Shown in pieces: positions 10,304-55,240 of a stretch of 64,000 nt of DNA; the first letter of the stretch is position 1, and each line of letters begins with the position of its first letter. Position numbers and translations under genes: made by a program. The notes beneath the pieces were generated by a model. The model was not told the origin of the DNA. It searched no databases and saw only the letters and a list, made by a program, of their open reading frames with translations. The stretch is from Patescibacteria group bacterium (GTDB taxonomy: Bacteria; Patescibacteriota; Minisyncoccia; Phycocordibacterales; Phycocordibacteraceae), in assembly GCA_038064495.1 (NCBI GenBank), contig JBBTSZ010000004.1:5363-69362 (forward strand), given 5' to 3'.

Positions 10304-11542
10304 ATGAAGCGTATACTCATCTTCTCGTTAAACTACTATCCCGACTTTGTTGGGGGTGCTGAGGTAGCAATTAAGGAGATTACCGACCGTCTGCCGCAGG
10401 AGGAATTTGAATTCCACGTCATAACGCTTCGTTTTAATAGAAACCTTCCAAAGGAAGAAAAAATCGGGAATGTGTCCGTACATCGTATCGGTTTCAGTCT
10501 ACGGGGCGCTACCATACACGACCTTGGTCGGTATCCACTCAAACTCAATAAATACTGGTTTCAGTTCGCAGCAGCGTGGCATGCGCTACGCCTCCACCGG
10601 AAGATCCCCTGTGACGCAATCTGGGCCATGATGGCTCACTCGAGCGCTATTCCAGCAGGACTTTTTAAACGCCTTCACCCGAGTGTCCCGTACCTCCTTA
10701 CCCTTCAGGAAGGAGACCCCCCCGAGTATATAGAACAACAGATGCGAACTGTGTGGCCACTGTTCATCCGAGGAGTGAGAAGCGCTGACTTCATTCAATC
10801 CATCTCAATCTATCTTCAAGCGTGGGGAAGGCGACTACGACCAACCGGGGAGTCCGTTGTTATACCAAACGGGGTTGATATACAGCTGTTTTCTCAAAAA
10901 CCAAACACACCAGCACTCACCGCGTATAAGAACACACTTGGTAAGAAAAAAACGGACATCTATCTCGTGACTACCTCACGACTCGTATTTAAAAACGGCA
11001 TCGATACGGTTATTCGAGCACTTCCAAAACTTCAAGAACACATCTCGTTTCTTATTTATGGAAACGGACCTGACGAGAAGAAGCTACGAATGCTCGTAGA
11101 AGAAATCGGTGTCACATCGCGCGTTCGGTTCATGGGTTACATCTCGCACGCGGACATGCCGCTTGCGCTTAGTGCTTCAGATATTTTTATTCGACCATCA
11201 CGCTCAGAAGGTATGGGCAATTCTTTTATAGAAGCTATGGCAACAGGTGTGCCGGTCATTGCAACTCGTGAAGGTGGCATCCCTGACTTTCTTTTTGATT
11301 CTAAGAACCATCCGGAACAACCTCAGACCGGCTGGTCAGTGAATACCGACGATCCTGATGATGTTGCCCGTATTGTTAATGCCATACTCGCTTCTCCTGA
11401 CACAGTTCGTACCGTGACTCAAAACGCACAAACGCTTGTGACAGAGAAATACGACTGGAACACGGTCGCACGCTCTATCCAGGAACTCTTAGAGAACCTA
11501 ACAAAGGTCTCCGCAATGGGAGGCGAGAACAGGGTACAATAG
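10304..11542 (+). CDS. Glycosyltransferase family 4 (GT-B, group 1)
   Basis: N-terminal ILIFSLNYYPDFVGGAEV; C-terminal EGMGNSFIEAMATGVPVIAT (E-x7-E-like); ATG at 10304 preferred over upstream TTG at 10259. Confidence 0.75.
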   Translation: MKRILIFSLNYYPDFVGGAEVAIKEITDRLPQEEFEFHVITLRFNRNLPKEEKIGNVSVHRIGFSLRGATIHDLGRYPLKLNKYWFQFAAAWHALRLHRKIPCDAIWAMMAHSSAIPAGLFKRLHPSVPYLLTLQEGDPPEYIEQQMRTVWPLFIRGVRSADFIQSISIYLQAWGRRLRPTGESVVIPNGVDIQLFSQKPNTPALTAYKNTLGKKKTDIYLVTTSRLVFKNGIDTVIRALPKLQEHISFLIYGNGPDEKKLRMLVEEIGVTSRVRFMGYISHADMPLALSASDIFIRPSRSEGMGNSFIEAMATGVPVIATREGGIPDFLFDSKNHPEQPQTGWSVNTDDPDDVARIVNAILASPDTVRTVTQNAQTLVTEKYDWNTVARSIQELLENLTKVSAMGGENRVQ

Positions 11543-11547
11543 CCATC

Positions 11548-12645
11548 ATGCGGGTTCTGATAGCCACACCCCTATATCCACCCGAGCTTGGTGGACCAGC
11601 AACCTACTCAAAAATCCTTGAAGAAGGATTACCTGTCCGTGACATAGCCGTTACACTCCTTGCCTTTAGCGAAGTGCGTCATCAGCCGAAAATTTTTCGA
11701 CACCTGCTCTATTTTTGGAAAGCCCTTCAGCTCGCACGCGCTGTTGATGTTGTGCTCGCACTTGACCCAGTCTCAGTCGGTCTGCCAGCGTACCTTGCGG
11801 CACGGCTGGCAGGGAAGAAATTTGTCGTAAAAGTGGTGGGGGACTACGCCTGGGAACAGGGACGTCAACGGTTCGGCATCTGGCTTCCGCTTGATGAATT
11901 TGTCCGCACCAAGGAAGTTCCTTTGCAGGTATTGCTACGACGTACGGTGCAAGAGTTTGTGACACGCAGAGCCCTCCGGGTGATTGTCCCGAGTAACTAC
12001 CTGAAACACATCATACAGTTCTGGGGTATTCCTCAAGAGAAAGTCAGCGTTATTCATAATGCCGTTGCAAGTACGAAGCCGAGTACGGTTCCAAGTGTGG
12101 TCGCCGACTCAGGAACACCAAGAATTATTAGTGTCGGGCGACTTGTTCCGTGGAAAGGCATGCACGGACTCATTAGTGCAATGCCTGAAATACGAACGCA
12201 CGTTCCAACCGCGGAGCTTATCATTGTGGGTGAAGGACCTGACCAGGAACAGCTTGAACGATTTGCTGAAGCGCGTGTTCCAGGAGGTGTGGTGTTTACC
12301 GGAGCCCTTCCTCATGACGAAACCTTGGCAGCAATCGCCGCATCAGATGTTGTGGTACTTAATTCAACCTACGAAGGACTCTCACATCTCCTCATTGAGG
12401 CCCTAACTCAGGGGTCTGCCGTAGTGGCAACAAAGGCTGGCGGAAACCCAGAACTGATTGAATCTGAGAAAAATGGTCTCCTCATTTCTATTGGCGACCC
12501 TGAAGGTCTTGCTCGCGCCTGTGTTCGTCTCCTTACCGACACTGCCTTTGCCGGGAGGCTTAAGATGGAAGCAAAAAAATCAATGCAGGACTTTAGTCAG
12601 GAGCGGATGCTCTTGGCTACGGAAACCCTTCTGCGAGGCGTATGA
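11548..12645 (+). CDS. Glycosyltransferase family 4
   Basis: MRVLIATPLYPPELGGPATY; C-terminal EGLSHLLIEALTQGSAVVAT. Confidence 0.75.
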   Translation: MRVLIATPLYPPELGGPATYSKILEEGLPVRDIAVTLLAFSEVRHQPKIFRHLLYFWKALQLARAVDVVLALDPVSVGLPAYLAARLAGKKFVVKVVGDYAWEQGRQRFGIWLPLDEFVRTKEVPLQVLLRRTVQEFVTRRALRVIVPSNYLKHIIQFWGIPQEKVSVIHNAVASTKPSTVPSVVADSGTPRIISVGRLVPWKGMHGLISAMPEIRTHVPTAELIIVGEGPDQEQLERFAEARVPGGVVFTGALPHDETLAAIAASDVVVLNSTYEGLSHLLIEALTQGSAVVATKAGGNPELIESEKNGLLISIGDPEGLARACVRLLTDTAFAGRLKMEAKKSMQDFSQERMLLATETLLRGV

Positions 12646-13760
12646 ATGTCCTCTTCATCTCAAACGACCCCTCCCTTTGTCTTCCTGAGAGTTCTGCTCG
12701 CACTCGCCTGAAAGGGTATGCCCGCACAATCGGCACGTTGCATGTGCTCACTCCTGCAAAAGAGAATCTTGAAGTAACTGATGAGAATCTCACCATTCAT
12801 GGTGTTCGTGGAAGCGCGGTTACTACATACCGTTCGCGTCTCAAGCGTGGACGTGCCCTCGTGCAGGATGCAGAGATAGAGATAGTCTCAGCACAGGACC
12901 CATTTGAAAACGGATGGCTTGCTCGCGCAATCACTCGTGGCACGAAAGCAAAACTCCATCTACAACTCCATACCGACTTCCTCTCACCCTGGTTTGTACG
13001 AACAGGGTCACTGAGTATGTCATTCAAAAATCGCGTGCGCAGAATGATTGCTGACATATTACTGCCGCAAGCAGACGGTATCCGTGTGGTTTCCGAGCGT
13101 ATCAAGACATCACTCGCTACTCGGTACGCTAATCGTATTCAATCGGTAACCGTACTCCCGATTGCGGTGAGCACTACGGTTCCAGAACGTGCGGAACTTC
13201 CACCGCATTCGTTTCAAACCGTCCTCGTAACCATCGGTAGACTTGAAGCAGAAAAGCATATAGACGATATCTTGCGGGCACTTTCAAAAACACCATCCTC
13301 CGTCGGTCTCTTTGTTATTGGAGAGGGGAGACTCCGTGCTTCTCTTGTTAGGCGTACCCGTGAGTTGCATATATCTGACCGAGTAAGCTTTCTGGGTGCT
13401 CAGACTAACGCCTGGGGACTTATGCAAAGTGCGGATGCCTATATTCAAGCAAGTGTATATGAAGGCTATGGGATGACGCTCGTAGAGGCGGCACTTTCCG
13501 GGGTGTCGATTATCACCACCGACGTCGGGATTGTGGGGGAGGTGCTTACGCCAAAGAAGGATGTTGTGGCAGTATCTCCTGGCGATATCAAGGGCCTTAC
13601 AAGTGCCATTACTGGCCTCACAGGGCCCCTGACAGAGCGAGAGACACGTAGAGCGAACGCTCGCAACTCAGTACAGTCTCATCTGAGCGCGTATCAAAAT
13701 CTAGCCAGTTTAATCACGAGCGACCTTTCGAGGCTTCTTGCTGGTTCTACAAGAGCATGA
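12642..13760 (+). CDS. Glycosyltransferase family 4 / group 1
   Basis: C-terminal EGYGMTLVEAALSGVSIITTDVG; 4-nt ATGA overlap with upstream gene. Confidence 0.7.
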   Translation: MNVLFISNDPSLCLPESSARTRLKGYARTIGTLHVLTPAKENLEVTDENLTIHGVRGSAVTTYRSRLKRGRALVQDAEIEIVSAQDPFENGWLARAITRGTKAKLHLQLHTDFLSPWFVRTGSLSMSFKNRVRRMIADILLPQADGIRVVSERIKTSLATRYANRIQSVTVLPIAVSTTVPERAELPPHSFQTVLVTIGRLEAEKHIDDILRALSKTPSSVGLFVIGEGRLRASLVRRTRELHISDRVSFLGAQTNAWGLMQSADAYIQASVYEGYGMTLVEAALSGVSIITTDVGIVGEVLTPKKDVVAVSPGDIKGLTSAITGLTGPLTERETRRANARNSVQSHLSAYQNLASLITSDLSRLLAGSTRA

Positions 13761-14272
13761 CCTACTTCGTCGACTTTGACCGAACCCTTTTTGATACCGA
13801 CCGCTTCCAGAAGGACTACGCGGAGCAACTTTCCCTTGCCGAGGAAGAACCGGGAGTTATTCACCGGGCGCTCGTGAAACTTTTGGCGGAGGGAAATCTC
13901 ACCTTTACGCAAGGAGAACTTACTCCCTACCTCTATGCAGACGCAGCAGAATTCTTACGAGGACTCGGGAACGAAGCTACTATTATCACTCGTGGGGATA
14001 TCGCGTTTCAAACAGCAAAAGTAAAAAGTGCGCTTGTCGGCATTCCGCGCCTCAGTGTGTTTTACACAGGTGAAAACAGCAAGGCTGCATACCTTGCTCC
14101 ACGGATTGATGCCTACCGAGATCCGGTGCTTGTTGACGATAAGCCTCTTGAGCTTGAGATACTGGCAACTACCTGTCCGACACTCCGTTTGTACGAAATG
14201 CGTAGAGATGGAGAGAAAGGGGACGGGCGGTGGTCTATCGTACAGTCACTCGGAGAGCTACCTTCAACATGA
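13757..14272 (+). CDS. HAD-superfamily hydrolase (sugar-phosphate phosphatase, possibly GmhB-like)
   Basis: HAD motif I FVDFDRTLFDT (DxDxT) at N-terminus; 171 aa. Confidence 0.5.
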   Translation: MTYFVDFDRTLFDTDRFQKDYAEQLSLAEEEPGVIHRALVKLLAEGNLTFTQGELTPYLYADAAEFLRGLGNEATIITRGDIAFQTAKVKSALVGIPRLSVFYTGENSKAAYLAPRIDAYRDPVLVDDKPLELEILATTCPTLRLYEMRRDGEKGDGRWSIVQSLGELPST

Positions 14273-15312
14273 GATTACTTATTGTCACGCAGAAAGTAGA
14301 TCGCGAAGACCCCATCCTCGGGTTCTTTCACACGTGGCTTCTTGAATTTGCTAAGCAGGTGGAATCACTCACGGTGATATGTCTCTCTGAAGGAGTCCAC
14401 TCGCTTCCAGAAAATGTCACGGTCTATTCCCTCGGTAAGGAAGAAGGAGAGCGTTCTTTACTCTTGTATAGTTTTGATTTTCTACAGCGTGTCATCAGAC
14501 TACGCGATACCTATGACACGGTGTTTGTGCACATGAATCCTGAATACCTCATTCTGGCCGGTGCTTTCTGGAGAGTCACGGGCAAGCGTACGGCGCTCTG
14601 GTATATGCACAAGGAGGTCTCGTGGCGCCTTCGGCTCGGTGTCTTCTTTGCTCATGACGTGTTTACCGCAACGAAGGAGAGTATGCGCCTAGATACGCGT
14701 AAGAAACGGGTCATGGGCCATGGTATTGATACAGACACTATTCCTGAACTTACTCCACCAAACTATCCACCACTCCACCTTGTTTCGGTGAGTCGTATTT
14801 CTCGCATCAAGCGCCTTCATATTCTTATTGAAACCGTCTCGCAACTCCTTGAGGGAGGCATAGAAGCTGAACTCACCCTTATTGGTGGACCGGTAACGGA
14901 CGACGACGAGGTGTATCTCAAGGAGCTCCATGGTCAAGCCGAGGCGCTTGGCTCTGCAGTCCGCATTCGGTTTATGGGGCCGGTAGAGCGCTCCGAGCTA
15001 CGCTACGTGTTTGAAGACGCTCACCTGTTTCTCCACGCCTCAGCTACCGGCTCGCTTGATAAAGCATCACTAGAACCACTACTTGCGGGTGTACCGGTCA
15101 TTACGGTTTCAGAAGAGCTTGCGGAACTTTCACTTCCGGGCATTCTCCTTGCCGCACCAAATGCTGAGGCGTTTACGAGTGTGGTCCGCAAAGCAATTGG
15201 CACACGCCTCTGGGACGATACGGAGATACGGGCATCTTCAAGAGCCTATGTTATGGAACAGCATGACGTCGCAAAACTCATTCCACGCATACTTGCTATA
15301 GTACAAACCTAG
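14269..15312 (+). CDS. Glycosyltransferase family 4 / group 1
   Basis: MRLLIVTQKVDREDPILGFFHTWL N-terminus; ATGA overlap with HAD gene; an alternative GTG start at 14230 would create a long overlap. Confidence 0.65.
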   Translation: MRLLIVTQKVDREDPILGFFHTWLLEFAKQVESLTVICLSEGVHSLPENVTVYSLGKEEGERSLLLYSFDFLQRVIRLRDTYDTVFVHMNPEYLILAGAFWRVTGKRTALWYMHKEVSWRLRLGVFFAHDVFTATKESMRLDTRKKRVMGHGIDTDTIPELTPPNYPPLHLVSVSRISRIKRLHILIETVSQLLEGGIEAELTLIGGPVTDDDEVYLKELHGQAEALGSAVRIRFMGPVERSELRYVFEDAHLFLHASATGSLDKASLEPLLAGVPVITVSEELAELSLPGILLAAPNAEAFTSVVRKAIGTRLWDDTEIRASSRAYVMEQHDVAKLIPRILAIVQT

Positions 15313-15314
15313 CT

Positions 15315-15950
15315 ATGGACGCTCCACAAACAGACAAATCGCATTACGCTATCGGCTCCTACGGATTTGAGGGCAGATTTGTGAGTTATTTTCACCAGCT
15401 ACACGAAGTGCTTTCACTGAAACCAAGAACCATTCTTGAAGTTGGGGTAGGGGACCGCGTGTTCGGCGATTTTATTAGAAACAACACAGGTGTGGGCTAT
15501 ACCTCAGTTGATATCGCTCCCGATCTCCATCCGGACGTGCTTGGAAGTGTGACAAAACTTCCATTTGCCGACAACTCGTTTGATGTGGTGTGTGCCTTTG
15601 AAGTCCTAGAACACCTTCCGTTTGAGGAGTTTGATGTCGCACTTTCTGAACTTGCTCGTGTTGCCAAGCGCGCCGTTATCCTTTCACTTCCGCATTTTGG
15701 TCCTATGCTCTCGTTCTCTCTAAAGGTTCCGTTCATTCCTCAGCTTCAGTGCGCAGTGAAGCTCCCGGTGTCTCGCACACATGCATTCAACGGTCAGCAT
15801 TATTGGGAAATTGGGAAGCGAGGATATCCACTCAGCCTCATTCGCACCAAGCTACACACGATCGGCGTACGTACCAAAGATTTCATTCCGTTCAACAGTC
15901 CATATCATCATTTCTTTACTATTGATGTTTCCAAACAACGCGGCGTATGA
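15315..15950 (+). CDS. Class I SAM-dependent methyltransferase
   Basis: Motif I ILEVGVGDRVFGDF; motif post-I region CAFEVLEHL. Confidence 0.7.
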   Translation: MDAPQTDKSHYAIGSYGFEGRFVSYFHQLHEVLSLKPRTILEVGVGDRVFGDFIRNNTGVGYTSVDIAPDLHPDVLGSVTKLPFADNSFDVVCAFEVLEHLPFEEFDVALSELARVAKRAVILSLPHFGPMLSFSLKVPFIPQLQCAVKLPVSRTHAFNGQHYWEIGKRGYPLSLIRTKLHTIGVRTKDFIPFNSPYHHFFTIDVSKQRGV

Positions 15951-16960
15951 AGTACGCGTACCTCTACGGCGGAGCCATCGGGGATTCTTTAGTCGGTCTT
16001 CACCTCGGGCGTGCACTTCACGAGCGCCTACCTGGGTCACATTTAATTCTTATCTCAACACGTCGAAGTCCATTTGTTCGTGAATTGGCAGAAACACTTC
16101 CGTATGTTCACTACCAGGAATTAATAAAAGAGGATCCCCGAACATGGTGGTTTTTTATGTTGCTTGCAATAACACCTTCGTCTATTTTTGTGTTTGAGCC
16201 GACCGATGTTTCGGTTCCGAGGTGGTGGAAACTTATCTTACGAGTAGCGACCGTGCTCCCCGGCAGTAAAGAAGTACACAGTCAGCTTATCGGTCATGAA
16301 CGAGCCGTACGTGCGCGGGTAGTGACGAGTATTGTTGGTCCCGAGGACAATCTCTTTATGGTTAATGTGCCACGAACTCTTCGTGCATGGGCAGTAGACC
16401 CGGGAGATGCACTAACGCCATTTCTACCGAGACCAAAGTGCAAGACTCCAGAGAAACCGAATATCCTCTTTCATTTCTTTGCCGCTAGTTATCGTCGTAG
16501 CTATCCCGTTGATAAAGCACGCAGTGTGCTTGAGCACGCACGCACACTGTTTCCTACCTACGAGTTTATTCTCAGCGCAACACCAGACGAACGTGAGCGA
16601 GCTGAAGCTATGGCAAAAGGCATTCCCGATATTCGGATTGAAACAGAGTTATCTGCGTCCGAACTCCTTTGTTACTTACAAAACGCCACCGTTGTGGTCG
16701 GTGTTGCTTCGGGAGTAACGCACCTTGCTTCACATCTTGGGAAACCAGTCATTGCACTTTCCAACCTCTCTGATCCGTATTGGCTGCCGACCTATGCACC
16801 AAAGACGATTATTCTTGCTAATCGTGAGCACTGTCGGTGCAAGGGGAACAAGCAGGGAGACTGTGTAGAGGATACTCCCGACGGGGAAGTGTTCAGATGT
16901 CTCTACTATATATCGACAGAATCGATACTTGAGGCCATGCAAGCAACGCACGCGCTATGA
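15947..16960 (+). CDS. Glycosyltransferase family 9 (heptosyltransferase-like)
   Basis: N-terminal YLYGGAIGDSLVGLHLGRAL and C-terminal VGVASGVTHLASHLGKPVIAL (GT9 GxxSGxxHLA-like). Confidence 0.6.
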   Translation: MKYAYLYGGAIGDSLVGLHLGRALHERLPGSHLILISTRRSPFVRELAETLPYVHYQELIKEDPRTWWFFMLLAITPSSIFVFEPTDVSVPRWWKLILRVATVLPGSKEVHSQLIGHERAVRARVVTSIVGPEDNLFMVNVPRTLRAWAVDPGDALTPFLPRPKCKTPEKPNILFHFFAASYRRSYPVDKARSVLEHARTLFPTYEFILSATPDERERAEAMAKGIPDIRIETELSASELLCYLQNATVVVGVASGVTHLASHLGKPVIALSNLSDPYWLPTYAPKTIILANREHCRCKGNKQGDCVEDTPDGEVFRCLYYISTESILEAMQATHAL

Positions 16961-20434: not shown

Positions 20435-20435
20435 G

Positions 20436-22359: not shown

Positions 22360-22461
22360 GCTATCCAGTATACCGAAAGAGATTACGGGATAGGTATTAT
22401 TGACAAATGGTATTAATTCTGATATAGTTAATACAGACTTCATTACACGAGGAGACATAGA

Positions 22462-22896: not shown

Positions 22897-22930
22897 TAGG
22901 CCGGCTCGTGAGAGCCGGCCTATTTCATTT
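22897..22930. terminator. Bidirectional rho-independent terminator between convergent genes
   Basis: taGGCCGGCTC-gtga-GAGCCGGCCta followed by TTTCATTT. Confidence 0.6.
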
Positions 22931-36087: not shown

Positions 36088-36122
36088 AACGTCGTTCGAG
36101 CAATTGCTCGAACGACGTTTTT
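36088..36122. terminator. Bidirectional rho-independent terminator (perfect 32-nt palindrome + T-run)
   Basis: AACGTCGTTCGAGCAATTGCTCGAACGACGTT then TTTT; between convergent NUDIX and cupin genes. Confidence 0.7.
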
Positions 36123-38487: not shown

Positions 38488-38518
38488 CTTTTTGCACACG
38501 AGCGCGGTATACACTACT

Positions 38519-40224: not shown

Positions 40225-40227
40225 ACG

Positions 40228-42179: not shown

Positions 42180-42259
42180 AGTTAGGAAAACTATACCCCA
42201 GGCTGATACGTTGCGACACAAAACTTTTACCGCTCCTCGTGGTTCTATATACTGTATAT

Positions 42260-46158: not shown

Positions 46159-46186
46159 GCTCTTGGCGCGAGGTTATACTCGGTAC

Positions 46187-47927: not shown

Positions 47928-48925
47928 AAACCTATCGAGGCGTCGTTATAGGGTGCGGAAAGGTGGGCGCCACCTTCGAAATGGATACCGGTCTTGTGAG
48001 GCCTGCCTCACACGCAGCCGCGCTTGTGGCGCACCCGCAAACAGAACTCGTCGCGCTTGTAGACCCCATGCCTGAGGCACTCGAACGCGCTGGAGGATAC
48101 TACAAGGTGCCTACCTATACTGATGCCGAGACATGCTTCACAGCAATGAAGCCGGATATTGTCATCATCGCGACTCCACCACCTACGCATGAAGCAATGC
48201 TTGCTCTCGCATTTGCGCATAACATTCCTGCTGTAATTTGTGAGAAGCCCGTGGCAGATACTCGTGTAGAAGCAGAACGTATGATTGATGCGACCGCGAA
48301 GGCTTCCACGCTCGTTATTGTTAATCATCAGCGCAGATTCTTTCCTCTGTTTATTGACGCTAAGGAGCGTATTGCAAAAGGAGAGCTAGGACGGGTGCAA
48401 CAAATAACGGCATACTACACTAATGGTCTTACCAATAACGGTACACACACACTTGATGCGATTGCATATCTCATCGCTGACCATGCTACGTGGGTAGTGG
48501 GGGTACGTAACGAAAAGAACACTACAGCGCCATTCAGCACGAACATCGATGGACTTGTCGGGTATGCGGGTGGAGCTGTCGCAGCAATACAGAGTCTTGA
48601 TAACGACTCATACGGGGTTCACGATTTCCGTATATACGGAACGGAGGGGGTCCTCACTATCGGGCAGTACGGCTATGCCTTTTCTCGAACACCTGTCGCA
48701 GAAGGCATAACGTTTGCCGGCGTCAAAGAGCCAGACTGGGAACACTCGGTGAACGAGCTTGATAAACGGAGCATGCTCCTCGGGACCCTTGCCCATACAG
48801 TGGAATGCTTGGAGCGAGGCACCCCGCCACGTAGCACCCTTTCCGATGGTTATCAGACTATGCAGGTACTCGAGGCGCTTACCGAGAGCGCAGACAATGG
48901 AGGCCAGCGCATTACCATTTCATAG
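47918..48925 (+). CDS. Gfo/Idh/MocA-family oxidoreductase
   Basis: YRGVVIGCGKVGATF; ICEKPVADT. Confidence 0.65.
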   Translation: MDMKTYRGVVIGCGKVGATFEMDTGLVRPASHAAALVAHPQTELVALVDPMPEALERAGGYYKVPTYTDAETCFTAMKPDIVIIATPPPTHEAMLALAFAHNIPAVICEKPVADTRVEAERMIDATAKASTLVIVNHQRRFFPLFIDAKERIAKGELGRVQQITAYYTNGLTNNGTHTLDAIAYLIADHATWVVGVRNEKNTTAPFSTNIDGLVGYAGGAVAAIQSLDNDSYGVHDFRIYGTEGVLTIGQYGYAFSRTPVAEGITFAGVKEPDWEHSVNELDKRSMLLGTLAHTVECLERGTPPRSTLSDGYQTMQVLEALTESADNGGQRITIS

Positions 48926-48931: not shown

Positions 48932-50221
48932 ATGGATATCGAAGCTCCAGCCATTCTTGGCGGCACACCCGTTCTTACGACTCCTCTACCACCTACGCAC
49001 AATGTGGGTGAGGAAGAGGTGCGTGCTACTACGCGCGTTCTCATGGGCGGCCCACTTTCCGGTTTCATCGGTACCGTTGGCGCGAGGTTTCTTGGGGGGG
49101 CGGAAGTCCAGCGTTTCGAAGAGGCATTTCGCGAATATTTTGGGGTGAAGCACGCGGTTGCATTTAACTCAGGCACTACCGCGCTTCATGCGGCGATTGC
49201 CGCACTCGGTATTGGGCCGGGTGATGAGGTCATTGTCCCACCGTACTCTATGGCCGCGTCTGCAGTATGTGTCGTGAACAATGGTGCCATACCCGTGTTT
49301 GCAGACATCGACCCAAAGACGTTCACTCTCGACCCAGAATCAGTGAAATCAAAAATCACGAAGTACACCAAAGGCATTGTGGTCGTGAACTTGTTTGGTC
49401 AGGCTGCAGACCTCGATGCCATCATGACCATCGCAAAAGACCACAACCTCAAGGTGCTTGAGGATAATGCGCAGTCACCGCGCGCCATGTACAAGGGAAA
49501 ATATGCAGGCACCATTGGAGACGTGGGCATGTTCAGTTTCAATGTGAACAAAGTTGCGCAGTGTGGAGAGGGTGGGGTGGTGGTTACGAACGATGACACC
49601 TACGCACTTCGTGCGCAGCTTATGCGCAATCACGGCGAGTCAGTGGTGGACGATTTACCTGACTACGATGCTGGACCTATATTCGGCAGTAACTACCGCA
49701 TGACGGAACTCGAGGCTGCCATCGCGTACGAGCAGCTGCAAAAGCTCGAACATTTCAATGCGCGCAAAGTTGAGCTTGCTGAATACCTCACGAGTCAGTT
49801 GAAGGATATTCCTGGGATAACGACTCCGTTTATTCCAGAAGGGAACACCCATGTGTATTTCCAGTACGCACTCAAAGTCGATGTAGAGAAAACAGGCATC
49901 TCGCGCGACAAGCTCGTTGAAGCAATGGCTGCCGAGGGATTCCCCATGGCACGCGGCTACGTGAAGCCCATTTATCTTCTGCGTATGTTCCAGGAGCGCA
50001 AGGCGTTTAACGATACTCATTTCCCCTTTGAGTACGATGGATATCAGGGCAACCCCGACTACTCGAAGGGGTCGTGTCCAGTTGTGGAGCGCATGTACGA
50101 AACGGAGCTTACCTCTAGCATGCTCTGTCAGTTCCCACGCACAAACGAACACATCGACTTGTTCGTGTTCGCATTGAAACGAGTGTTAGCAAACGCAGAG
50201 GCAGTAATGAAAGGAGCATGA
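48932..50221 (+). CDS. pseC: DegT/DnrJ/EryC1/StrS-family PLP aminotransferase (PseC-like)
   Basis: Family-typical length (429 aa) and pattern VIVPPYSMAASA…FSFNVNKVAQCGEGG. Confidence 0.65.
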   Translation: MDIEAPAILGGTPVLTTPLPPTHNVGEEEVRATTRVLMGGPLSGFIGTVGARFLGGAEVQRFEEAFREYFGVKHAVAFNSGTTALHAAIAALGIGPGDEVIVPPYSMAASAVCVVNNGAIPVFADIDPKTFTLDPESVKSKITKYTKGIVVVNLFGQAADLDAIMTIAKDHNLKVLEDNAQSPRAMYKGKYAGTIGDVGMFSFNVNKVAQCGEGGVVVTNDDTYALRAQLMRNHGESVVDDLPDYDAGPIFGSNYRMTELEAAIAYEQLQKLEHFNARKVELAEYLTSQLKDIPGITTPFIPEGNTHVYFQYALKVDVEKTGISRDKLVEAMAAEGFPMARGYVKPIYLLRMFQERKAFNDTHFPFEYDGYQGNPDYSKGSCPVVERMYETELTSSMLCQFPRTNEHIDLFVFALKRVLANAEAVMKGA

Positions 50222-51006
50222 TAGACGGTAAGAAGATCGTTGCGATTATCGAAGCACGCATGACCTCGTCACGCTTGCCGGGGAAGGTGCTCATGCCACT
50301 AGCAGGGGAGTCCGTACTGGCACGCCAGATAGAACGATTGCGCCACAGTACGCACATTGACGACGTCGTGGTCGCAACGACCACGAATGCTCCAGACGAT
50401 GCTATCGTTGCGGAGTGCGAGCGTCTCAACGCGCGCTATTGGCGCGGAAGTGAGGACGATGTGCTTCTGCGCGTACTTGAGGCAGCGCAATCGGTACAAG
50501 CGGATATCATTGTCGAAATCTGTGGAGATTGCCCCTTTATTGACTGGCGTCATGCGGATGCCCTCCTTGAAATGATGGGTAAGGACGGGTATGACTATGT
50601 CGCAAACTCGCTGGAAGAGACGTTCCCCATCGGATTTGATATTCGCATTTTCCCGACGACCATTCTTGATGAGGTAAACCGCATCAGCAAAGACGCATAT
50701 GATCACGAGCACGTCTCTTTGTATATCTACAATCACCCTGAGAAATATAAGCTCGGGAATATCGCTGCGGAAGGAAAGATGCGTCGCAGGGACCTCCGAC
50801 TCGTTATCGATAACAAAGAGGACTATCAACTCGCTTCAACCATCTACGAGAAGCTCTATCCAGGAAATCCCAACTTTAGTGCCGAGGACGTGATTACATT
50901 GTTTGAGCAGGAGCCAGAGCTCGCACTCATAAACCGCGACATTAAACAGAAAGACCCCTACGGTACGTTTATGGAACGGCACATGCGTGAGGACACTATC
51001 GAATAA
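50218..51006 (+). CDS. pseF: CMP-nonulosonate synthetase (acylneuraminate cytidylyltransferase family, PseF-like)
   Basis: KIVAIIEARMTSSRLPGKVLMPLAG matches CMP-NeuAc synthetase N-terminal signature. Confidence 0.7.
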   Translation: MIDGKKIVAIIEARMTSSRLPGKVLMPLAGESVLARQIERLRHSTHIDDVVVATTTNAPDDAIVAECERLNARYWRGSEDDVLLRVLEAAQSVQADIIVEICGDCPFIDWRHADALLEMMGKDGYDYVANSLEETFPIGFDIRIFPTTILDEVNRISKDAYDHEHVSLYIYNHPEKYKLGNIAAEGKMRRRDLRLVIDNKEDYQLASTIYEKLYPGNPNFSAEDVITLFEQEPELALINRDIKQKDPYGTFMERHMREDTIE

Positions 51007-51074
51007 CAGAACGGGTTACGGGTACCGCTCTTACCTCAGTTTCTCTGATTGTTTTACAACCAGCGTTTCTCGTG

Positions 51075-51203
51075 ATGGATATCGTTATACCAATTACGAT
51101 GGGCATCATGATTTTCAAGGAGCGCCGTCAATTCGGACCATGGGACATTGTGTTCTATGTTCTCGGAATTATCGGTTTCCTGCTGGTGCTCTTCGGCTCA
51201 TAA
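51075..51203 (+). CDS. Unannotated 42 aa hydrophobic peptide (small membrane protein)
   Basis: MDIVIPITMGIMIFKERRQFGPWDIVFYVLGIIGFLLVLFGS; below ORF-track length cutoff; followed by intrinsic terminator. Confidence 0.3.
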   Translation: MDIVIPITMGIMIFKERRQFGPWDIVFYVLGIIGFLLVLFGS

Positions 51204-51207
51204 ACTC

Positions 51208-51248
51208 GCGCCCCCACAACGCAAATTGTGGGGGCGCTTTCTGTGGTA
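51208..51248 (+). terminator. Rho-independent terminator
   Basis: GCGCCCCCACAA-cgcaa-TTGTGGGGGCGC then TTTCTGTGGTATCTTT. Confidence 0.65.
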
Positions 51249-51294
51249 TCTTTGCATCGTATACAGGACCTTCAAGGTTATATCTAGTACTTAA

Positions 51295-53058
51295 ATGAAA
51301 AACTGGGGCACGATTAAACGTTTATATGGTAAATACCGACTGCATGTCGGTACCCTTATTGTACTTGGACTTGTTGGGGCGGTGCTTGATGGTCTGGCTA
51401 TCAACATTGCCGTACCCTCTATATCGTTTCTCGTAAATCCGCACTCGGTCCCTACCGACATCATTTCAAAGACCATAGCAGCACTCTTTGCTTTTTTTGG
51501 TGTTTCGTTCACCTTTCGGCACCTCATTATCCTTATTACGATTCTTATGTTCGTTCGTGCAGGGGTGCTTGTTATCTTCGGCTACCTGCGTGGCTGGATT
51601 ACGGGAGATTTCCTTGCAAGTGAAAGTAAGATTGTGCTTGGTGCCACGCTTGCTGCCTCGTGGCCCTTTCTCCTTAAGCAAAAGATTGGTCATGTACAAA
51701 ATACCCTTGAGCGTGATTTGCAACGTTCAGCAAATCTACTTGAGTCGTTTAGTCAACTCGTCCAGTCTTTCACTGGATTCTTGATGTACCTCCTGGTGGC
51801 ACTCAATATCTCTCCATCGACAACCCTTTTTACCTTTGCTGCGGGTGTCGGGCTGGCATTACTCATTCGTCCTTTACTTGCCCGAACACAACGTATTGGC
51901 ATGCAAATGGCCAATACCGACCGTCAGGTATCCCAGTTTGTAACTGAGCATGTTATTGGCATGAAGGCGTTAAAAGCTGCTGGCGTAGAGGGGAAGGCTT
52001 TCTTGGCTGGTTCAGAACTATTTACGACACTGCACACGCTCTATGTGCGGATGGCAACGGTACGTTCACTTTCAACGAGCTTTTTTCAACCGTTCGCAAT
52101 GATATTTATCATTATTCTATTTACACTTAAATATCATTCCGGCTCGTTTGATATTGTGGCATTTGCTGCCACCCTCTATTTGATTCAGAAGATCTTTACG
52201 TATCTCGAGAGTACTCAGGCATCACTCCACGGCATTCGGGAACTCCTGCCGTATGCCGCACACATTGATGAGTTTAAGCAGCAGCTCGAGACTGCCCATG
52301 AGGAGCCTCAAAAGGGCACTCAGTCCTTCTCGCTCAAGAAATCTCTTGCATTTAAGAATGTGTCATTTGGCTACAGCCAAGAAAAGGTAATCCTCAAGAA
52401 TGTATCGTTCTCACTTGCTGCAGGAACCACGACAGCTGTTATTGGTCCCTCTGGTGCCGGGAAGACTTCTATCGCCGACCTAGTGCTCCGTCTCTTTGCT
52501 CCGACTAGTGGAGTGATTGAAGTGGATGGTATTGACTACAAAGACATTTCTCTCGAGAGCCTCCGTGGTTCACTTGGATACGTTACACAAGACTCATTTC
52601 TACTCCACGCATCCATCGCAGATAATGTACGTTTCTACCGCAGTGAACTACGCGATGAAGACATAACCAATGCACTACACTCTGCAAACCTTACGGATTT
52701 TATTGAAAGCCTACCGGATGGAGTTAACACCATTGTGGGGGATAGGGGAGTGCTACTTTCAGGGGGCCAGCGCCAGCGTGTCGCGCTTGCACGTGCACTT
52801 GCAGGCTCACCTGCACTCTTGGTACTCGATGAAGCAACGAGCGCGCTTGATCGTGAGTCAGAACGTCTGGTGCAGGAATCTATTGAGGCACTGCATGGCA
52901 AAGCCACAGTCTTAGTTATTGCTCACCGTCTCTCAACGATTGAGCGAGCTGACTCTATTTTAGTTCTGGATAAGGGTTCTGTTCTTGAGTCGGGTCGCCC
53001 TGAAGAACTGATACAAGACCCAAATTCGTACTACAGTCGTCACCGCACAGGAGGGTAG
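51295..53058 (+). CDS. ABC transporter, fused permease/ATPase exporter (MsbA-like)
   Basis: 6-TM N-terminal domain; Walker A GPSGAGKTS; signature LSGGQRQRVALARAL; Walker B LLVLDEATSALD. Confidence 0.8.
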   Translation: MKNWGTIKRLYGKYRLHVGTLIVLGLVGAVLDGLAINIAVPSISFLVNPHSVPTDIISKTIAALFAFFGVSFTFRHLIILITILMFVRAGVLVIFGYLRGWITGDFLASESKIVLGATLAASWPFLLKQKIGHVQNTLERDLQRSANLLESFSQLVQSFTGFLMYLLVALNISPSTTLFTFAAGVGLALLIRPLLARTQRIGMQMANTDRQVSQFVTEHVIGMKALKAAGVEGKAFLAGSELFTTLHTLYVRMATVRSLSTSFFQPFAMIFIIILFTLKYHSGSFDIVAFAATLYLIQKIFTYLESTQASLHGIRELLPYAAHIDEFKQQLETAHEEPQKGTQSFSLKKSLAFKNVSFGYSQEKVILKNVSFSLAAGTTTAVIGPSGAGKTSIADLVLRLFAPTSGVIEVDGIDYKDISLESLRGSLGYVTQDSFLLHASIADNVRFYRSELRDEDITNALHSANLTDFIESLPDGVNTIVGDRGVLLSGGQRQRVALARALAGSPALLVLDEATSALDRESERLVQESIEALHGKATVLVIAHRLSTIERADSILVLDKGSVLESGRPEELIQDPNSYYSRHRTGG

Positions 53059-53092
53059 TCGCCCTTTTCGAGAGTGGTATAGTCTAGGACAT

Positions 53093-55240
53093 ATGTCCAC
53101 CATGAAAACCACATTACGCTGGGTAATTTACATAGCACTTTTTACTATCCCGTTCCTGGCACTATATGTCGCAAACGGCCTGTTTTTCCCGTTTATAACT
53201 GGGAAAGGATTCGCGTTTCGTATTTTGGTAGAAATTGCACTTTTTGCGTGGATTCTCCTTGCGTGCGCAGACCCGGCGTACCGACCTCGTTTTTCATGGA
53301 CTCTGATTCTCTACGCGGTGTTTGTCTCGTGGATTTTTATTGCGGATGTGTTCGGCGTTAATCCACATAAAGCACTCTGGAGTAATTTTGAACGCATGGA
53401 AGGGTGGGTGACTCTTGTGCACGTGTTTGCGTTCTTCCTGGTTACCGCATCGGTATTTACGACTGATAAACTTTGGCGTAAGTGGTGGCTGACCTTTGTT
53501 GCGGTGGCTGCGCTCGTTTGTTGTTATTGCTTACTTCAGCTTTCGGGGGCGATAACTATTCACCAGGGAGGGGTACGTGTGGACGGAACCTTCGGTAACG
53601 CAGCCTATCTCGCCGTGTATCTGCTATTTGGTGCTGCGGTAGCTCTTTGGCAGGCATTTGAGTCAAAAGGGTTCCTCCGATATTCACTCTTTGTGCTCTC
53701 TTTTGTAGAAGTGGTTATTCTCTTCTTTACTGCCACTCGTGGTGCCGTGCTTGGTCTCGTAGGAGCTATTGGTCTTGGTGCACTTCTTTGGATGGTTGAG
53801 TCAGGTTCAAAGGGTAAAAAAGTGGCAGGAGGCATCTTCGTTGCTCTCGTGATTGTTGCCGGAGGGTTCTATCTCCTTCGTGAAAGTGCCTTTGTACAGT
53901 CAGAACCTACACTGCAACGCATTTCCTCCATCTCTATAGGCGATTTAAAAGTTCGCTTTACGCTCTGGGGTATGGCGGTGAAGGGTGTGAGCGAGCGACC
54001 GCTCACGGGGTGGGGCCAGGAAGGTTTTAATTACATATTCAACGAACATTATGTTCCTTCCATGTATCGCCAGGAGCCATGGTTTGACAGAGCCCACAAT
54101 GTCTTCATTGATTGGCTTGTTGCTGGGGGTATTCCTGGGTTTCTTCTTTTTGTCGCTCTTCTGATAAGTGCGGTGCGAGCACTGTATATGGCTGGAGCGA
54201 CTCGGCCTGAACGCGTGATGCTGGTTGCTGCACTCGGCGGATATGCTATTCAAGGTCTCGTGGTGTTTGATAATCTCTTTACCTATGTGCCGCTTGCCGC
54301 AATACTTGCGACCGCACATTCAGTTTCCTCGCGTCCATGGAAGAAGATTGAGGCGCTACCGGTAGCTCGCGAGGCAACGCTCCAGGTCGCCACCCCTATT
54401 GTGGCTGTGTTTGCTGCAACCATTATATGGATGGTAAACGTGCCGAATATCGCAGCATCTAATGAACTTATACATGCCATGTCGTTTACGAGTAACGACC
54501 TCACTTCAAACGTTGACTACTTTAAACAAGCACTTGCAGAGAATACCTACGCGAAACAAGAAATTCGAGAACAGTTAATTATGTTCACCTCGAACGTTGC
54601 GAATCAGCAACAAGGACCCTCACAAGCGATGACGCAACTCGGACAGTTTGCAATGGAAGAAATGGGTAAAGAAGTAGCAACACAGCCAAAGGATGCTCGT
54701 ATTCGCCTTGAGTACGCATTAGGATACCGTGCACTCGGTGACTATGAACATGCACTTGAACAAATTGGTATTGCCCATGAACTCTCACCAAAGAAGCAAG
54801 GCATTCTTCTGGAACAGGGGATTAACTATTGGCAGGTGAACAAATGGGGTGAAGCGCGAGCCTCATTTCATCAGGCGTATGACCTCGATCACTCGTTCCC
54901 CGAACTCGCTGCCTACGCTGCCGCAGGAGACCTAACAACTGGGCACCTCCAGGAGGGCACAGACCTACTTCTTCAGACGGTGGGTACAACTACCGTAGAC
55001 TCTGAGCCGCTCATCCTTGCCTACTACCAAGTGAAGATGTATCCAGAACTCATTCACTCGCTCCAGCTTCAGGTTACCCGTCAGAACGGTTCGGCGGCGT
55101 CTCGTTTCCGTCTTGCCGCAGCGTATGTGGCTGCCGGACAACATGCTGAGGCTCGTGCACAAGTAAACAAAGCTGTTCTTGAGCACCCCGAAGTTGCAGC
55201 TCAAGCAGCTGAATTCATGAAGCACATTCCTGGTGGTTAA
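53093..55240 (+). CDS. O-antigen ligase/polymerase-like polytopic membrane protein with C-terminal TPR-like repeats
   Basis: About 12 TM helices in N-terminal 430 aa; C-terminal soluble helical repeats (AYALGYRALGDYEHALEQ…). Confidence 0.5.
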   Translation: MSTMKTTLRWVIYIALFTIPFLALYVANGLFFPFITGKGFAFRILVEIALFAWILLACADPAYRPRFSWTLILYAVFVSWIFIADVFGVNPHKALWSNFERMEGWVTLVHVFAFFLVTASVFTTDKLWRKWWLTFVAVAALVCCYCLLQLSGAITIHQGGVRVDGTFGNAAYLAVYLLFGAAVALWQAFESKGFLRYSLFVLSFVEVVILFFTATRGAVLGLVGAIGLGALLWMVESGSKGKKVAGGIFVALVIVAGGFYLLRESAFVQSEPTLQRISSISIGDLKVRFTLWGMAVKGVSERPLTGWGQEGFNYIFNEHYVPSMYRQEPWFDRAHNVFIDWLVAGGIPGFLLFVALLISAVRALYMAGATRPERVMLVAALGGYAIQGLVVFDNLFTYVPLAAILATAHSVSSRPWKKIEALPVAREATLQVATPIVAVFAATIIWMVNVPNIAASNELIHAMSFTSNDLTSNVDYFKQALAENTYAKQEIREQLIMFTSNVANQQQGPSQAMTQLGQFAMEEMGKEVATQPKDARIRLEYALGYRALGDYEHALEQIGIAHELSPKKQGILLEQGINYWQVNKWGEARASFHQAYDLDHSFPELAAYAAAGDLTTGHLQEGTDLLLQTVGTTTVDSEPLILAYYQVKMYPELIHSLQLQVTRQNGSAASRFRLAAAYVAAGQHAEARAQVNKAVLEHPEVAAQAAEFMKHIPGG

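Follow-up and report, generated by a model that had tools for sequence, protein, structure and literature searches.

The region between positions 10304 and 55240 (∼45 kb) of the DNA analysed here, a window of 64,000 nucleotides from contig JBBTSZ010000004.1 of a Patescibacteria group bacterium (GenBank assembly GCA_038064495.1), is probably a locus for cell-envelope glycoconjugates, conserved and modular in its build, from a Parcubacteria-type bacterium of the candidate phyla radiation (CPR). We counted 45 open reading frames (ORFs) in it; the spacers between them are very short, and neighbours overlap by 4 nt in ten cases (nine on the same strand). This bears out the original prediction of a large, diverse and tightly packed glycan locus; the flanks and a further 5.5 kb upstream were also scanned. 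Several proteins of the window have their closest homologs in Adlerbacteria, Kaiserbacteria, Colwellbacteria and other lineages of the Parcubacteria type. What did not hold up is the notion of an 'island', if a peculiar insertion is meant by it: GC content is 0.465–0.528 inside the region and 0.473–0.513 in the flanks, leaving no compositional island, and the modules are kept in relatives whose proteins are 55–68% identical. With GC flat and synteny retained, a horizontally acquired island was ruled out. Judged from gene order and composition, the locus is a vertically maintained, modular envelope-glycan region of a CPR clade. Literature searches combining CPR with nonulosonate, and CPR with O-antigen ligase or S-layer glycosylation, returned no prior description of such a locus.

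In the relative L085 (∼60–65% identity), gene order is the same from the methyltransferase gene at 15315 through the NUDIX gene, apart from three small insertions. It runs methyltransferase, GT9, GT47 and GT4 glycosyltransferases (GTs), UDP-sugar dehydrogenase, short-chain dehydrogenase/reductase (SDR), GFO/IDH/MocA oxidoreductase, cupin, C-methyltransferase, GT2, GtrA and GT-C, followed farther on by DAO-family oxidoreductase, alcohol dehydrogenase, E1 alpha and beta, PfkB kinase, HldE domain II-type nucleotidyltransferase and NUDIX hydrolase. At 37–78% identity, L002 and L006 (both Kaiserbacteria, L006 on chromosome OY969413.1), L004 and L087 keep the series GT9, 633-aa protein, PseB, citryl-CoA synthetase/lyase (CCS/CCL), GNAT acetyltransferase, N-acetyl sugar amidotransferase (NASAT), amidase, RmlD, NeuB, GT2, GFO/IDH/MocA and DegT, together with the GT-C/GT2/GtrA trio. 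Conservation was thus found, as in one counter-scenario attached to the original prediction (a conserved locus of known composition), while the composition of the product is not known. Module order differs between relatives, and more than one product is therefore possible. There is a sizeable, if minority, chance that at least two neighbouring glycan systems make up the region as a mosaic, for instance a nonulosonate glycan handled via Wzy_C, a heptose/uronic-acid glycan and a GT2/GtrA/GT-C decoration. The region has at least 12 strand switches or transcription units, which speaks for such a mosaic and against a single product, as do the reshuffling of modules in L087 (where the GT-C/GT2/GtrA set abuts the GT9–633-aa–PseB–CCL block, with no E1/HldE block between), the pairing of CCS/CCL with quite different sugar genes in L003 (Ryanbacteria) and the presence of two GT2 genes of polyprenyl-phosphate type. 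On the other hand, the 45 kb hold just one exporter and one Wzy_C ligase, and the whole set has stayed together despite divergence to ∼60% protein identity. Besides, a mosaic concerns product number alone and is compatible with an envelope-glycan locus.

The evidence for glycan assembly starts with the GTs. Ten passed the Pfam gathering score (five GT4, two GT9, two GT2 and one GT47-like), and two that lack a family match were called from AlphaFold2 models, built on homolog alignments and compared with the PDB by Foldseek. The predicted 'at least 14' GTs therefore stand at 12 solid calls, ten by Pfam and two by fold, and reach 14 only if one probable GT (at 36586) and the Wzy_C ligase are counted. 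Coordinates are on the plus strand unless marked (−). The GT4 proteins are encoded at 10304–11542 (Glycos_transf_1 116.6 bits plus Glyco_transf_4; start as in the NCBI gene call), 11548–12645 (Glycos_transf_1 117.8 bits), 12642–13760 (Glycos_transf_1 84 bits), 14230–15312 (GT4-type, with the C-terminal domain alone recognised; Glyco_trans_1_4 48.9 and Glycos_transf_1 48.2 bits) and 17898–19172 (Glycos_transf_1 96.9 bits). They are only 24–29% identical pairwise and therefore not recent duplicates. The coordinates of the last are those of the longest ORF, and its true start probably lies later (the L085 homolog has 391 aa). A member of the heptosyltransferase family GT9 at 15947–16960 (Glyco_transf_9 46.5 bits, cut-off 22) is followed by a GT47/exostosin-like gene at 16957–18006 (Exostosin_GT47 47.3 bits, cut-off 33.4). 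The second GT9-like protein (27327–28349) matches weakly, at 26.3 bits against the same Glyco_transf_9 cut-off of 22, and heptosyltransferase I/II models match it at E ∼1e-7, under their own cut-offs. Of the two GT2 genes, that at 47262–47927 (Glycos_transf_2 82.1 bits) is of the polyprenyl-phosphate glycosyltransferase type (PpgS/AglJ/DPM1-like), the PpgS and AglJ models matching under their cut-offs; the other is part of the trio described next.

This trio comprises the GT2 gene at 24275–25105 (Glycos_transf_2 51.2 bits), a GtrA-family small membrane protein gene at 24980–25450 (−) (156 aa; GtrA_DPMS_TM 50.1 bits) and a gene for a 605-aa membrane protein at 25493–27310. We placed the probable GtrA start at M86 of a long ORF, going by the translation and by the L085 homolog, which has 156 aa. 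The 605-aa protein has at least nine hydrophobic segments, and its AlphaFold2 model (pLDDT 91, pTM 0.89) gave GT-C enzymes as all of the best 31 PDB matches (Foldseek probability 0.87–1.00, and 1.00 for the best 22; TM score 0.28–0.47), in agreement with the predicted GT-C. AftA, STT3/PglB/AglB, DPY19, ArnT, ALG9/12, Emb and PimE were among the top matches, with AftA and STT3/PglB the nearest folds (TM score 0.42–0.47, ∼10% identity). Neither this protein nor any of its 92 homologs has a Pfam or NCBIfam match, and the family thus falls into no described GT-C sequence family (PMT, STT3, ArnT, YfhO); all homologs are unannotated, the named ones come solely from Patescibacteria-group metagenome-assembled genomes (MAGs), and one is fused to a GT2. 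In the family alignment, D56 is nearly invariant and E81-H82 are invariant, which makes them candidates for the acidic catalytic site that GT-C enzymes have in their first extracytoplasmic loop; a PglB/STT3-type WWDxG motif was not found in the 605-aa protein. The order GT2-GtrA-GT-C is the same in L085, and the three genes stay adjacent in L087. Given the synteny of the trio in three relatives, and a homolog in which GT2 and GT-C are fused, we read these genes as a separate three-component system, in which the GT2 would be the probable polyprenyl-phosphate sugar synthase and single sugars would be added outside the cell from polyprenyl-phosphate donors. Textbook examples of three-component systems are GtrA/GtrB/GtrC (O-antigen modification), CsbB/GtcA/YfhO (lipoteichoic acid glycosylation) and Ppm1/Pmt (protein O-mannosylation). 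With these, the trio shares a GT2 polyprenyl-phosphate synthase, a GtrA and a GT-C side by side (kept in L085, L087 and L004), yet its GT-C belongs to a CPR-restricted family with no Pfam match and, unlike oligosaccharyltransferases, it lacks WWDxG.

The second GT called by fold (28324–29154 (−), 276 aa) belongs to the fucosyltransferase superfamily of GT-B enzymes (GT11/23/37/65/68-like), which upholds the guess of a GT11-like enzyme at the level of fold. It carries an HxRxR-type motif (IGIHVRQRP), and its model (pLDDT 90.8) returned FUT8, AtFUT1, POFUT1/2 and NodZ for all of its best 28 PDB matches (E 1e-6 to 1e-3, TM score ∼0.5). No Pfam match was obtained for the protein itself, PF01531 (GT11) occurs in just two of 85 homologs, both distant, and the named homologs are mostly Patescibacteria-group MAGs. 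The adjoining gene at 29156–29857 (−) encodes a 233-aa protein with no Pfam, NCBIfam or PDB match. It belongs to a large unannotated family (1421 cluster representatives at E ≤ 1e-3), most members of which are ∼230 aa long and stand-alone, the longer ones being fused to GT34, GT47, GT2, HAD or TPR domains; the family is a putative glycan-associated domain, so far uncharacterised. Two other views of this pair were discarded: that both are parts of one frameshifted gene, given their separate full-length homolog families and an NCBI start that removes the overlap, and that the 233-aa protein is a truncated GT9, since BLASTP against both GT9 proteins was insignificant, leaving it unassigned. PDB sequence searches with a 302-aa protein and with the 233-aa, 633-aa and Wzy_C proteins gave nothing useful.

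The genes of a nonulosonate and amidino-sugar module lie between 38492 and 51006. They include one for a PseB-type UDP-GlcNAc 4,6-dehydratase (38492–39520; Polysacc_synt_2 300.8 bits), which scores 398 bits against the PseB equivalog cut-off of 407.75, compared with only 57 bits for the LegB model. A GNAT N-acetyltransferase that may have a PseH-like role (42239–42805; Acetyltransf_3 107.4 bits) reaches 37.8 bits with the PseH model (cut-off 93.1). After the RmlD-type 4-keto-sugar reductase (45319–46158; RmlD_sub_bind 156 bits) comes a nonulosonic acid synthase of the NeuB/PseI/LegI family with an SAF domain (46067–47278; NeuB 252 bits), for which the NeuB (298.7 bits) and PseI (295.3 bits) models, both under their cut-offs, do not separate the subtype by score; in the PDB ranking, pseudaminic acid synthase 8h2c comes first, then SpsE, then NeuB. 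A GFO/IDH/MocA sugar oxidoreductase (47906–48925; Pfam) is followed by a DegT-family nucleotide-sugar aminotransferase (48932–50221; DegT_DnrJ_EryC1 329.7 bits; PseC 231.7 bits with cut-off 423.5, LegC 213.4 bits with cut-off 420) and a CMP-ulosonic acid synthetase of the NeuA/KdsB family (50218–51006; CTP_transf_3 103.9 bits). For the latter, the best NCBIfam matches are KdsB models, far under cut-off (70 vs 255 bits). The module thus combines a NeuB-family synthase with a CMP-sugar synthetase; most pathway enzymes fall under the equivalog cut-offs. Taken together, the families point to a nonulosonate of the pseudaminic/legionaminic acid (Pse/Leg) type, sequence scores not distinguishing Pse from Leg.

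Also within this module is the NASAT of the WbuX/WbpG family (42802–43992; TIGR03573 340.8 bits, cut-off 203.2), a protein blank in Pfam with a PDB match to 8wex at E=7e-45. Its PP-loop SGGKDS lies at residue 79 and its tetracysteine CTRC...GICKAC near the N-terminus, and the family is defined by just these elements, PP-loop SGGxDS and tetracysteine CxxC...[GN]xCxxC (PMC10607449). The NASAT gene overlaps that of an amidase-signature, GatA-like protein (43964–45322; Amidase 229 bits; GatA model 178 bits, under cut-off), and the pair is also kept in L002 and L004. The amidase may serve as ammonia donor to the NASAT, and the glycan probably carries an acetamidino group. With known NASATs (WbuX of E. 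coli O145, WbpG of P. aeruginosa O5 and LpNASAT of Legionella; PMC10607449), the protein shares the HMM match, the PP-loop SGGKDS, the zinc motif CxxC...GxCxxC and the similarity to 8wex. A difference is that the gene overlaps one for a GatA-like amidase in L002, L004 and the present locus. WbuX is described as having HisH/HisF-like partners (WbuY/WbuZ).

Just upstream of the dehydratase gene, a 633-aa protein with a TagB/TagF-type GT-B fold is encoded (36586–38487). Its Glyphos_transf score of 22.0 bits falls short of the cut-off (22.1), its L087 homolog clearly matches PF04464, and it also shows a weak match to the BFO_1060 family (E=1.8e-10) and to TIGR04396. Proteins of the BFO_1060/Tanf_01245 type were shown genetically to be transferases of Pse/Leg derivatives in T. 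forsythia (PMC5420450). The 633-aa protein is a probable GT and, on these matches, a TagB-like candidate nonulosonate transferase.

The right end of the region would supply export and ligation; here the predicted MsbA-like ABC exporter and O-antigen-ligase/TPR protein, like the GtrA protein above, were confirmed by Pfam matches. An ABC exporter half-transporter of the ABCB/MsbA/PglK fold class (51295–53058; ABC_tran, ABC_membrane; ABCB1-type PDB matches) is, from its context, a candidate flippase for a lipid-linked glycan. It is followed by a Wzy_C-family protein (O-antigen ligase/polymerase/O-oligosaccharyltransferase) with C-terminal tetratricopeptide repeats (TPR) and 12 hydrophobic segments (53093–55240; Wzy_C 65.8 bits, cut-off 31.7; TPR). 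A PDB search found no solved relative of this protein, and the ligase, O-oligosaccharyltransferase and polymerase subtypes are not separable by sequence. Its stop codon overlaps the murB start (TAATG, 55238–55242), and in L003 (JGI 3300025150; 12239–18086) two Wzy_C genes lie directly upstream of murB and secA. Both arrangements suggest that glycan ligation is co-expressed with peptidoglycan precursor synthesis.

The same coupling could mean attachment to peptidoglycan. The product would then be a wall-linked secondary polymer, teichoic- or teichuronic-acid-like, with the Wzy_C-TPR protein as polymerase and the 633-aa protein forming phosphodiesters. The Glyphos_transf match of the 633-aa family, the Wzy_C/murB overlap with its counterpart in Ryanbacteria, the Mur ligase and FemAB-like genes upstream and the presence of a uronic-acid pathway are in line with such a polymer, and Pfam Wzy_C also covers polymerases. 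Nevertheless, we consider it unlikely, since the window contains no LCP-family ligase, no TagO/TagA-type primer enzymes and no TagGH-type ABC-2 transporter. A TagD/TarI/TarJ equivalog is absent as well (the nucleotidyltransferase scores 168 bits with HldE domain II vs 35 bits with TagD). Two further counterpoints are the match of the 633-aa protein to the nonulosonate-transferase family BFO_1060 and the gene for a CMP-sugar synthetase. A classical teichoic acid locus was rejected, in that the family scans of the window showed no TagO/TagA/TagD/TarIJ/TagGH/LCP genes.

Under the envelope-glycan reading, surface proteins are among the likeliest acceptors. The flanking proteins carry signal peptides or N-terminal anchors and contain 19–27% Ser/Thr, which makes these secreted Ser/Thr-rich proteins plausible substrates of O-glycosylation. 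The N-x-S/T sequons that had been cited in favour of glycosylation carry little weight: compared with composition-matched shuffles, two flanking proteins have 20 and 12 of them (2.2–2.5 standard deviations above the mean), and two others lie under the mean. With this weak excess, the lack of WWDxG in the GT-C and GT2/GtrA neighbours that point to monosaccharide donors, N-glycosylation of the sequon-rich neighbours is not supported. O-linked or non-protein acceptors fit better, because the machinery consists of a Wzy_C-type ligase and GT2/GtrA/GT-C.

Precursor pathways, likewise part of the original prediction, are present, although ADP-heptose synthesis lacks GmhA and nonulosonate synthesis the PseG/NeuC-type step. 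An HldE-like function appears as a split pair, a PfkB kinase (34227–34970; rfaE_dom_I 113 bits, cut-off 345) and a nucleotidyltransferase (34974–35474; rfaE_dom_II 168.6 bits, cut-off 181.5), and the ADP-heptose route, as judged from the genes found, is incomplete in the region. Two GT9 genes, the HldE-like pair, a CMP-ulosonate synthetase, an ABCB/MsbA-type exporter and Wzy_C recall enterobacterial core and O-antigen assembly. One might thus envisage a lipopolysaccharide (LPS)-core-like glycolipid or lipoglycan, built by GT9 enzymes on a lipid anchor, flipped by an MsbA-like protein and joined by a WaaL-like ligase. This is very unlikely: the window has no Lpx, KdsA or Kdo transferase, the CMP-sugar synthetase reaches 70 of the 255 bits called for by the KdsB model, and the synthase is of the NeuB/PseI family rather than KdsA. 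CPR bacteria are described as being without LPS pathways. The likeness to the LPS inner core (HldE, the GT9 enzymes WaaC/WaaF, MsbA, WaaL) is thus one of protein families; in contrast to it, all members here are under equivalog cut-offs, lipid A and Kdo genes are absent from the window, and there is no GmhA.

Further genes may provide or modify other sugars. A UDP-glucose/ManNAc-type nucleotide-sugar 6-dehydrogenase with all three UDPG_MGDP_dh domains (19208–20434) adjoins an SDR nucleotide-sugar epimerase/dehydratase (20400–21431; Epimerase 144, GDP_Man_Dehyd 123 bits). These are followed by a GFO/IDH/MocA sugar oxidoreductase (21409–22503 (−); Pfam, with all NCBIfam matches under cut-offs), a small cupin of the WxcM/Polysacc_synt_C type, a candidate keto-sugar isomerase/epimerase (22462–22857; PF14667 33.2 bits, cut-off 28.7) with a homolog at the same position in L085, and a C-methyltransferase of the NDP-hexose (TylCIII) type (22929–24173 (−); Methyltransf_14 137, Methyltransf_13 67.7 bits), composed of a zinc-binding N-domain, an S-adenosylmethionine (SAM) methyltransferase domain and a C-methyltransferase C-terminal domain. 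Farther to the left lie a SAM methyltransferase gene conserved in L085 (15315–15950; Methyltransf_11 42.8 bits) and one for a 171-aa protein (13757–14272), a candidate sugar-phosphate phosphatase with a HAD-like DxDxT N-terminus (FVDFDRTLFDT) and no Pfam or NCBIfam match. A second, WbuC-like cupin is encoded at 36123–36497 (−) (Cupin_2 46.3 bits; WbuC match weak), next to a NudE-like NUDIX hydrolase of the ADP-compound hydrolase type (35561–36073; NUDIX 39.1 bits; NudE E=7e-9, under cut-off). Between these two convergent genes, a perfect hairpin with a 14-bp stem (36088–36119) is likely a bidirectional terminator. The 103-aa ORF at 50987–51298 has no family match and may not be a gene.

About ten of the 45 genes fall outside the usual roles in glycan synthesis, namely the citryl-CoA synthetase/lyase triad, DAO, Zn-alcohol dehydrogenase, E1 alpha/beta, NUDIX and amidase. 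The region is not made up purely of glycan genes, and the original prediction had overlooked the CCS/CCL operon, the NASAT-amidase pair, the C-methyltransferase/cupin set and E1 alpha/beta. An FAD-dependent oxidoreductase of the DAO family (29921–31093; DAO 68.6 bits; conserved in L085), a Zn-dependent medium-chain alcohol dehydrogenase (31193–32233; ADH_N, ADH_zinc_N) and the thiamine-diphosphate enzyme subunits E1 alpha (32223–33191; E1_dh 215.7 bits) and E1 beta (33194–34222; Transket_pyr, Transketolase_C) form one tight run with the HldE-like genes, which is kept in L085. Pyruvate dehydrogenase E1 models match under their cut-offs, and no E2 or E3 gene lies nearby. The run could possibly furnish a two-carbon (C2)-branch donor for a branched-chain sugar, or serve acetoin-type metabolism.

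Taken as one pathway, these genes would work as follows. The PseB-type dehydratase, DegT aminotransferase, GNAT enzyme, NeuB-family synthase and CMP-synthetase, the substrates of which are suggested by family, would make a Pse/Leg-type 5,7-diamino nonulosonic acid, on which the NASAT and the GatA-like amidase would convert an N-acetyl to an acetamidino group. UDP-sugar dehydrogenase and SDR would yield a uronic acid or a derivative of one, while C-methyl and 6-deoxy sugars would come from the C-methyltransferase together with the two small cupins and the reductases of GFO and RmlD type. The two GT9 enzymes would draw on a heptose-type donor that the HldE-like kinase and adenylyltransferase activate with ADP. 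On the cytoplasmic face, the five GT4, two GT9, GT47-like and fucosyltransferase-like GT-B enzymes would build a hetero-oligosaccharide on a lipid carrier, after initiation by an enzyme presumably encoded elsewhere, and the TagB-like candidate nonulosonate transferase would cap it. The ABC half-transporter would flip the lipid-linked glycan, and outside the membrane Wzy_C-TPR would transfer or polymerise it onto an acceptor, most likely either Ser/Thr residues on surface proteins or an anchor in the wall or membrane. CCS/CCL, from its context, may split citrate to provide acetyl-CoA for N-acetylations.

Several findings weigh against this scheme. Most pathway enzymes score under the NCBIfam equivalog cut-offs, and because of this the identities of the sugars are not fixed. 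Family scans of the window and the 5.5 kb upstream found neither a PseG nor a LegG/NeuC-type enzyme (the only Epimerase_2 trace being a sub-threshold one of 24 bits, cut-off 30.6, on the GT9 protein at 15947), no GmhA (SIS domain), which may be encoded elsewhere, and no initiating phosphoglycosyltransferase. The best solved relative of the DegT protein is a perosamine synthetase, nearer than PseC. Finally, our literature search retrieved no experimental data on a CPR glycan of this type.

Among known systems, the closest parallels are O-glycosylation and S-layer glycan (slg) loci, such as that for the Pse5Am7Gra-terminated O-glycan of Tannerella forsythia and Gram-positive slg loci with a Wzy_C-type O-oligosaccharyltransferase. 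Like the present locus, these have nucleotide-sugar pathways, many GTs, an amidino Pse/Leg-type nonulosonate (predicted in the present locus), the TagB-like transferase family (PMC5420450), a flippase or ABC exporter, a Wzy_C-family transferase and nearby secreted Ser/Thr-rich proteins. Unlike them, it has no initiating phosphoglycosyltransferase in the locus, its ligase carries a C-terminal TPR, and GT9/HldE-like genes, a new-family GT-C, E1 alpha/beta and citryl-CoA synthetase/lyase are embedded in it. By analogy, it would work like a general O-glycosylation/S-layer-glycan cluster joined by a three-component system of the Gtr/CsbB-YfhO type. Still, the locus cannot be shown to belong to any single one of these systems, because the equivalogs are mostly missed, GmhA, PseG/NeuC and the initiator are missing, and there are no lipid A or teichoic primer genes. 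NASAT, CCL and NeuB are true members of their families, as is the GT-C at the level of fold.

The least expected content of the locus is a minus-strand operon (39517–42179) inside the nonulosonate module that encodes citryl-CoA lyase and both subunits of citryl-CoA synthetase. The lyase (39517–40224 (−)) passes its NCBIfam model (NF004869 244.5 bits, cut-off 212), matches PDB 6hxp, which is annotated as citryl-CoA lyase, at E=7e-57 and has the motifs HGGA and GYGHKVY. The SucD-like small subunit (40228–41124 (−); CoA_binding, Ligase_CoA) carries the GHAG phosphohistidine loop at residue 255, and the large subunit (41121–42179 (−); ATP-grasp_2 106.5, Citrate_bind 82.2 bits) joins an ATP-grasp to a citrate-binding domain with an ANYTEYSG loop. 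Its start, M39, was set by alignment to SucC residue 1, and its best PDB match is 6hxq, annotated as the large subunit of a citryl-CoA synthetase. Phosphohistidine loop, citrate-binding loop and lyase motifs are all intact. The three genes, their domain split and their motifs are those of the two-enzyme ATP-citrate lyase (6hxq/6hxp), the form of Hydrogenobacter thermophilus. In contrast to the CCS/CCL of autotrophs using the reductive tricarboxylic acid (rTCA) cycle, the present operon belongs to a fermentative, reduced-genome CPR bacterium and sits in a nonulosonate/amidino-sugar module.

A scan of one genome per species yielded 83 CCL loci from CPR, DPANN, Asgard and a few other lineages, with a synthetase small-subunit gene close by in 66 of them. 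Neighbours were then analysed outside the close relatives of the window. Within 5 kb, a sugar epimerase/dehydratase recurred in ten loci, a UDP-sugar dehydrogenase in eight, a GlmU-like uridylyl/acetyltransferase in eight and a sugar-1-phosphate nucleotidyltransferase in five. A separate count over the three nearest ORFs per side in 25 genomes had GNAT, GlmS-type and epimerase domains among its most frequent entries. Up to 2.5 kb from the operon, sugar genes numbered 1.26 per 10 kb, vs 0.52 and 0.43 farther out. In 12 of the 52 distant CPR/DPANN loci, the gene next to the operon was a sugar gene, compared with 6.8% of other nearby ORFs. The flanking sugar genes vary by lineage, being GlmU-like in Daviesbacteria-type, UDP-glucose dehydrogenase, nucleotidyltransferase and epimerase in Woesearchaeota-type, RmlD-like in Ryanbacteria and GNAT-NASAT here.

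Two explanations compete for this operon. It has close to an even chance of being ordinary central metabolism (citrate cleavage or an rTCA-type remnant), a passenger kept in place by inherited synteny. The triad is self-contained and on the opposite strand, it occurs in 66 of the 83 loci, which span CPR, DPANN, Asgard and other phyla and mostly lack recognisable sugar genes alongside it, and in 40 of the 52 distant loci neither adjacent gene is a sugar gene. The literature treats the genes as rTCA-type markers of unclear role in DPANN and CPR, and as enriched in Saccharimonadia (PMC8091004, PMC12577380). Inherited synteny alone is not sufficient, however, because the partner genes differ between lineages; the 2.5-fold drop in sugar-gene density with distance from the triad and the ranking of GNAT and GlmS among the commonest neighbour families also argue against a mere passenger. 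The simplest alternative in the present context, and a doubtful one, is that the operon cleaves citrate to provide acetyl-CoA for amino-sugar N-acetylation. More generally, we tentatively consider it possible, if on the unlikely side, that CPR and DPANN took over CCS/CCL as a dedicated acyl-donor supply for envelope glycans, turning scavenged citrate into acetyl-CoA with which amino sugars and nonulosonic acids are N-acetylated, and possibly yielding oxaloacetate as a source of phosphoenolpyruvate for NeuB. Against this stands an association with sugar genes that is only ∼2-fold, is absent in most loci and comes from loci that are not phylogenetically independent. In a bolder, possible variant, the citrate-synthase-like CCL would form a C-C bond on a keto-sugar. 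A link between CCS/CCL and glycans was not described in the literature we searched.

Two observations on CCL loci stand apart from this question. In L003, where a Bac_transf initiator adjoins the CCS/CCL operon, genes on the same strand for a DmpF-like acetaldehyde dehydrogenase, a DmpG-like aldolase, an acetolactate-synthase-type thiamine-diphosphate enzyme and an RmlD-like reductase precede CCS/CCL (3499–10726), placing C2/acyl-forming enzymes inside a GT2/DegT/Bac_transf/Wzy_C locus of a CPR bacterium. Besides, in MAGs titled 'uncultured Gammaproteobacteria', 'Saccharibacteria' or 'Methanosarcinales' (binchicken/TPA assemblies; L029, L034, L036, L037, L079, L042, L046 and others), CCL clusters with CPR/DPANN versions and the neighbourhoods are CPR/DPANN-like, so that the titles may not match taxonomy.

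Outside the region, the left flank encodes a TrwB/HerA-like ATPase and CARDB-type proteins that are secreted or anchored, with a FemAB-like gene, a Mur ligase and RsmI farther upstream; murB, secA, a Ham1-family gene, obg and gatB occupy the right flank. Neither tRNAs nor Rfam RNA families were found in the window. Positions 7–10125 contain two paralogous tandem modules, each made of an N-terminally anchored ∼320-aa protein and a CARDB protein with a signal peptide (607 aa at 2891–4714 and 796 aa at 5726–8116). These two CARDB proteins share their C-terminal 388 aa at 66% identity, a 617-aa protein (7–1860) has the same C-terminal domain, and a TrwB/VirD4/HerA-like ATPase comes after the modules; together, these may form a CPR surface or secretion apparatus. 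On the right, the 3' end of obg and the downstream spacer are duplicated (60464–60877 and 62193–62496, 95–97% identity), the second copy carrying a 110-nt internal deletion. The copies bracket an ORF (60901–62145; 414 aa, signal peptide, sequon-rich), an arrangement resembling the insertion of a gene between obg and gatB that duplicated its target.

In summary, the kind of locus is already known, and what is new is the CPR host, two unannotated GT families, the embedded CCS/CCL operon and the NASAT-amidase pairing. Should the readings proposed here fail, the locus would still be a correct, if ordinary, case of a large gene cluster for polysaccharides. Essentially nothing is known of the surface chemistry of CPR bacteria, which live attached to other cells. 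The locus offers a parts list for a Parcubacteria surface glycan, with a putative amidino nonulosonate, predicted heptose-type, uronic and C-methyl sugars, a new GT-C and a Wzy_C-TPR protein coupled to murB, which can help in detecting glycans, in designing lectin or antibody probes and in studying host attachment. The citrate-cleaving operon, for its part, suggests a testable reason for the 'orphan' ATP-citrate-lyase-type genes of CPR and DPANN, which are now read as unexplained rTCA remnants; if true, an acyl-donor role would explain why such 'rTCA marker' genes persist in organisms without a carbon-fixation cycle.

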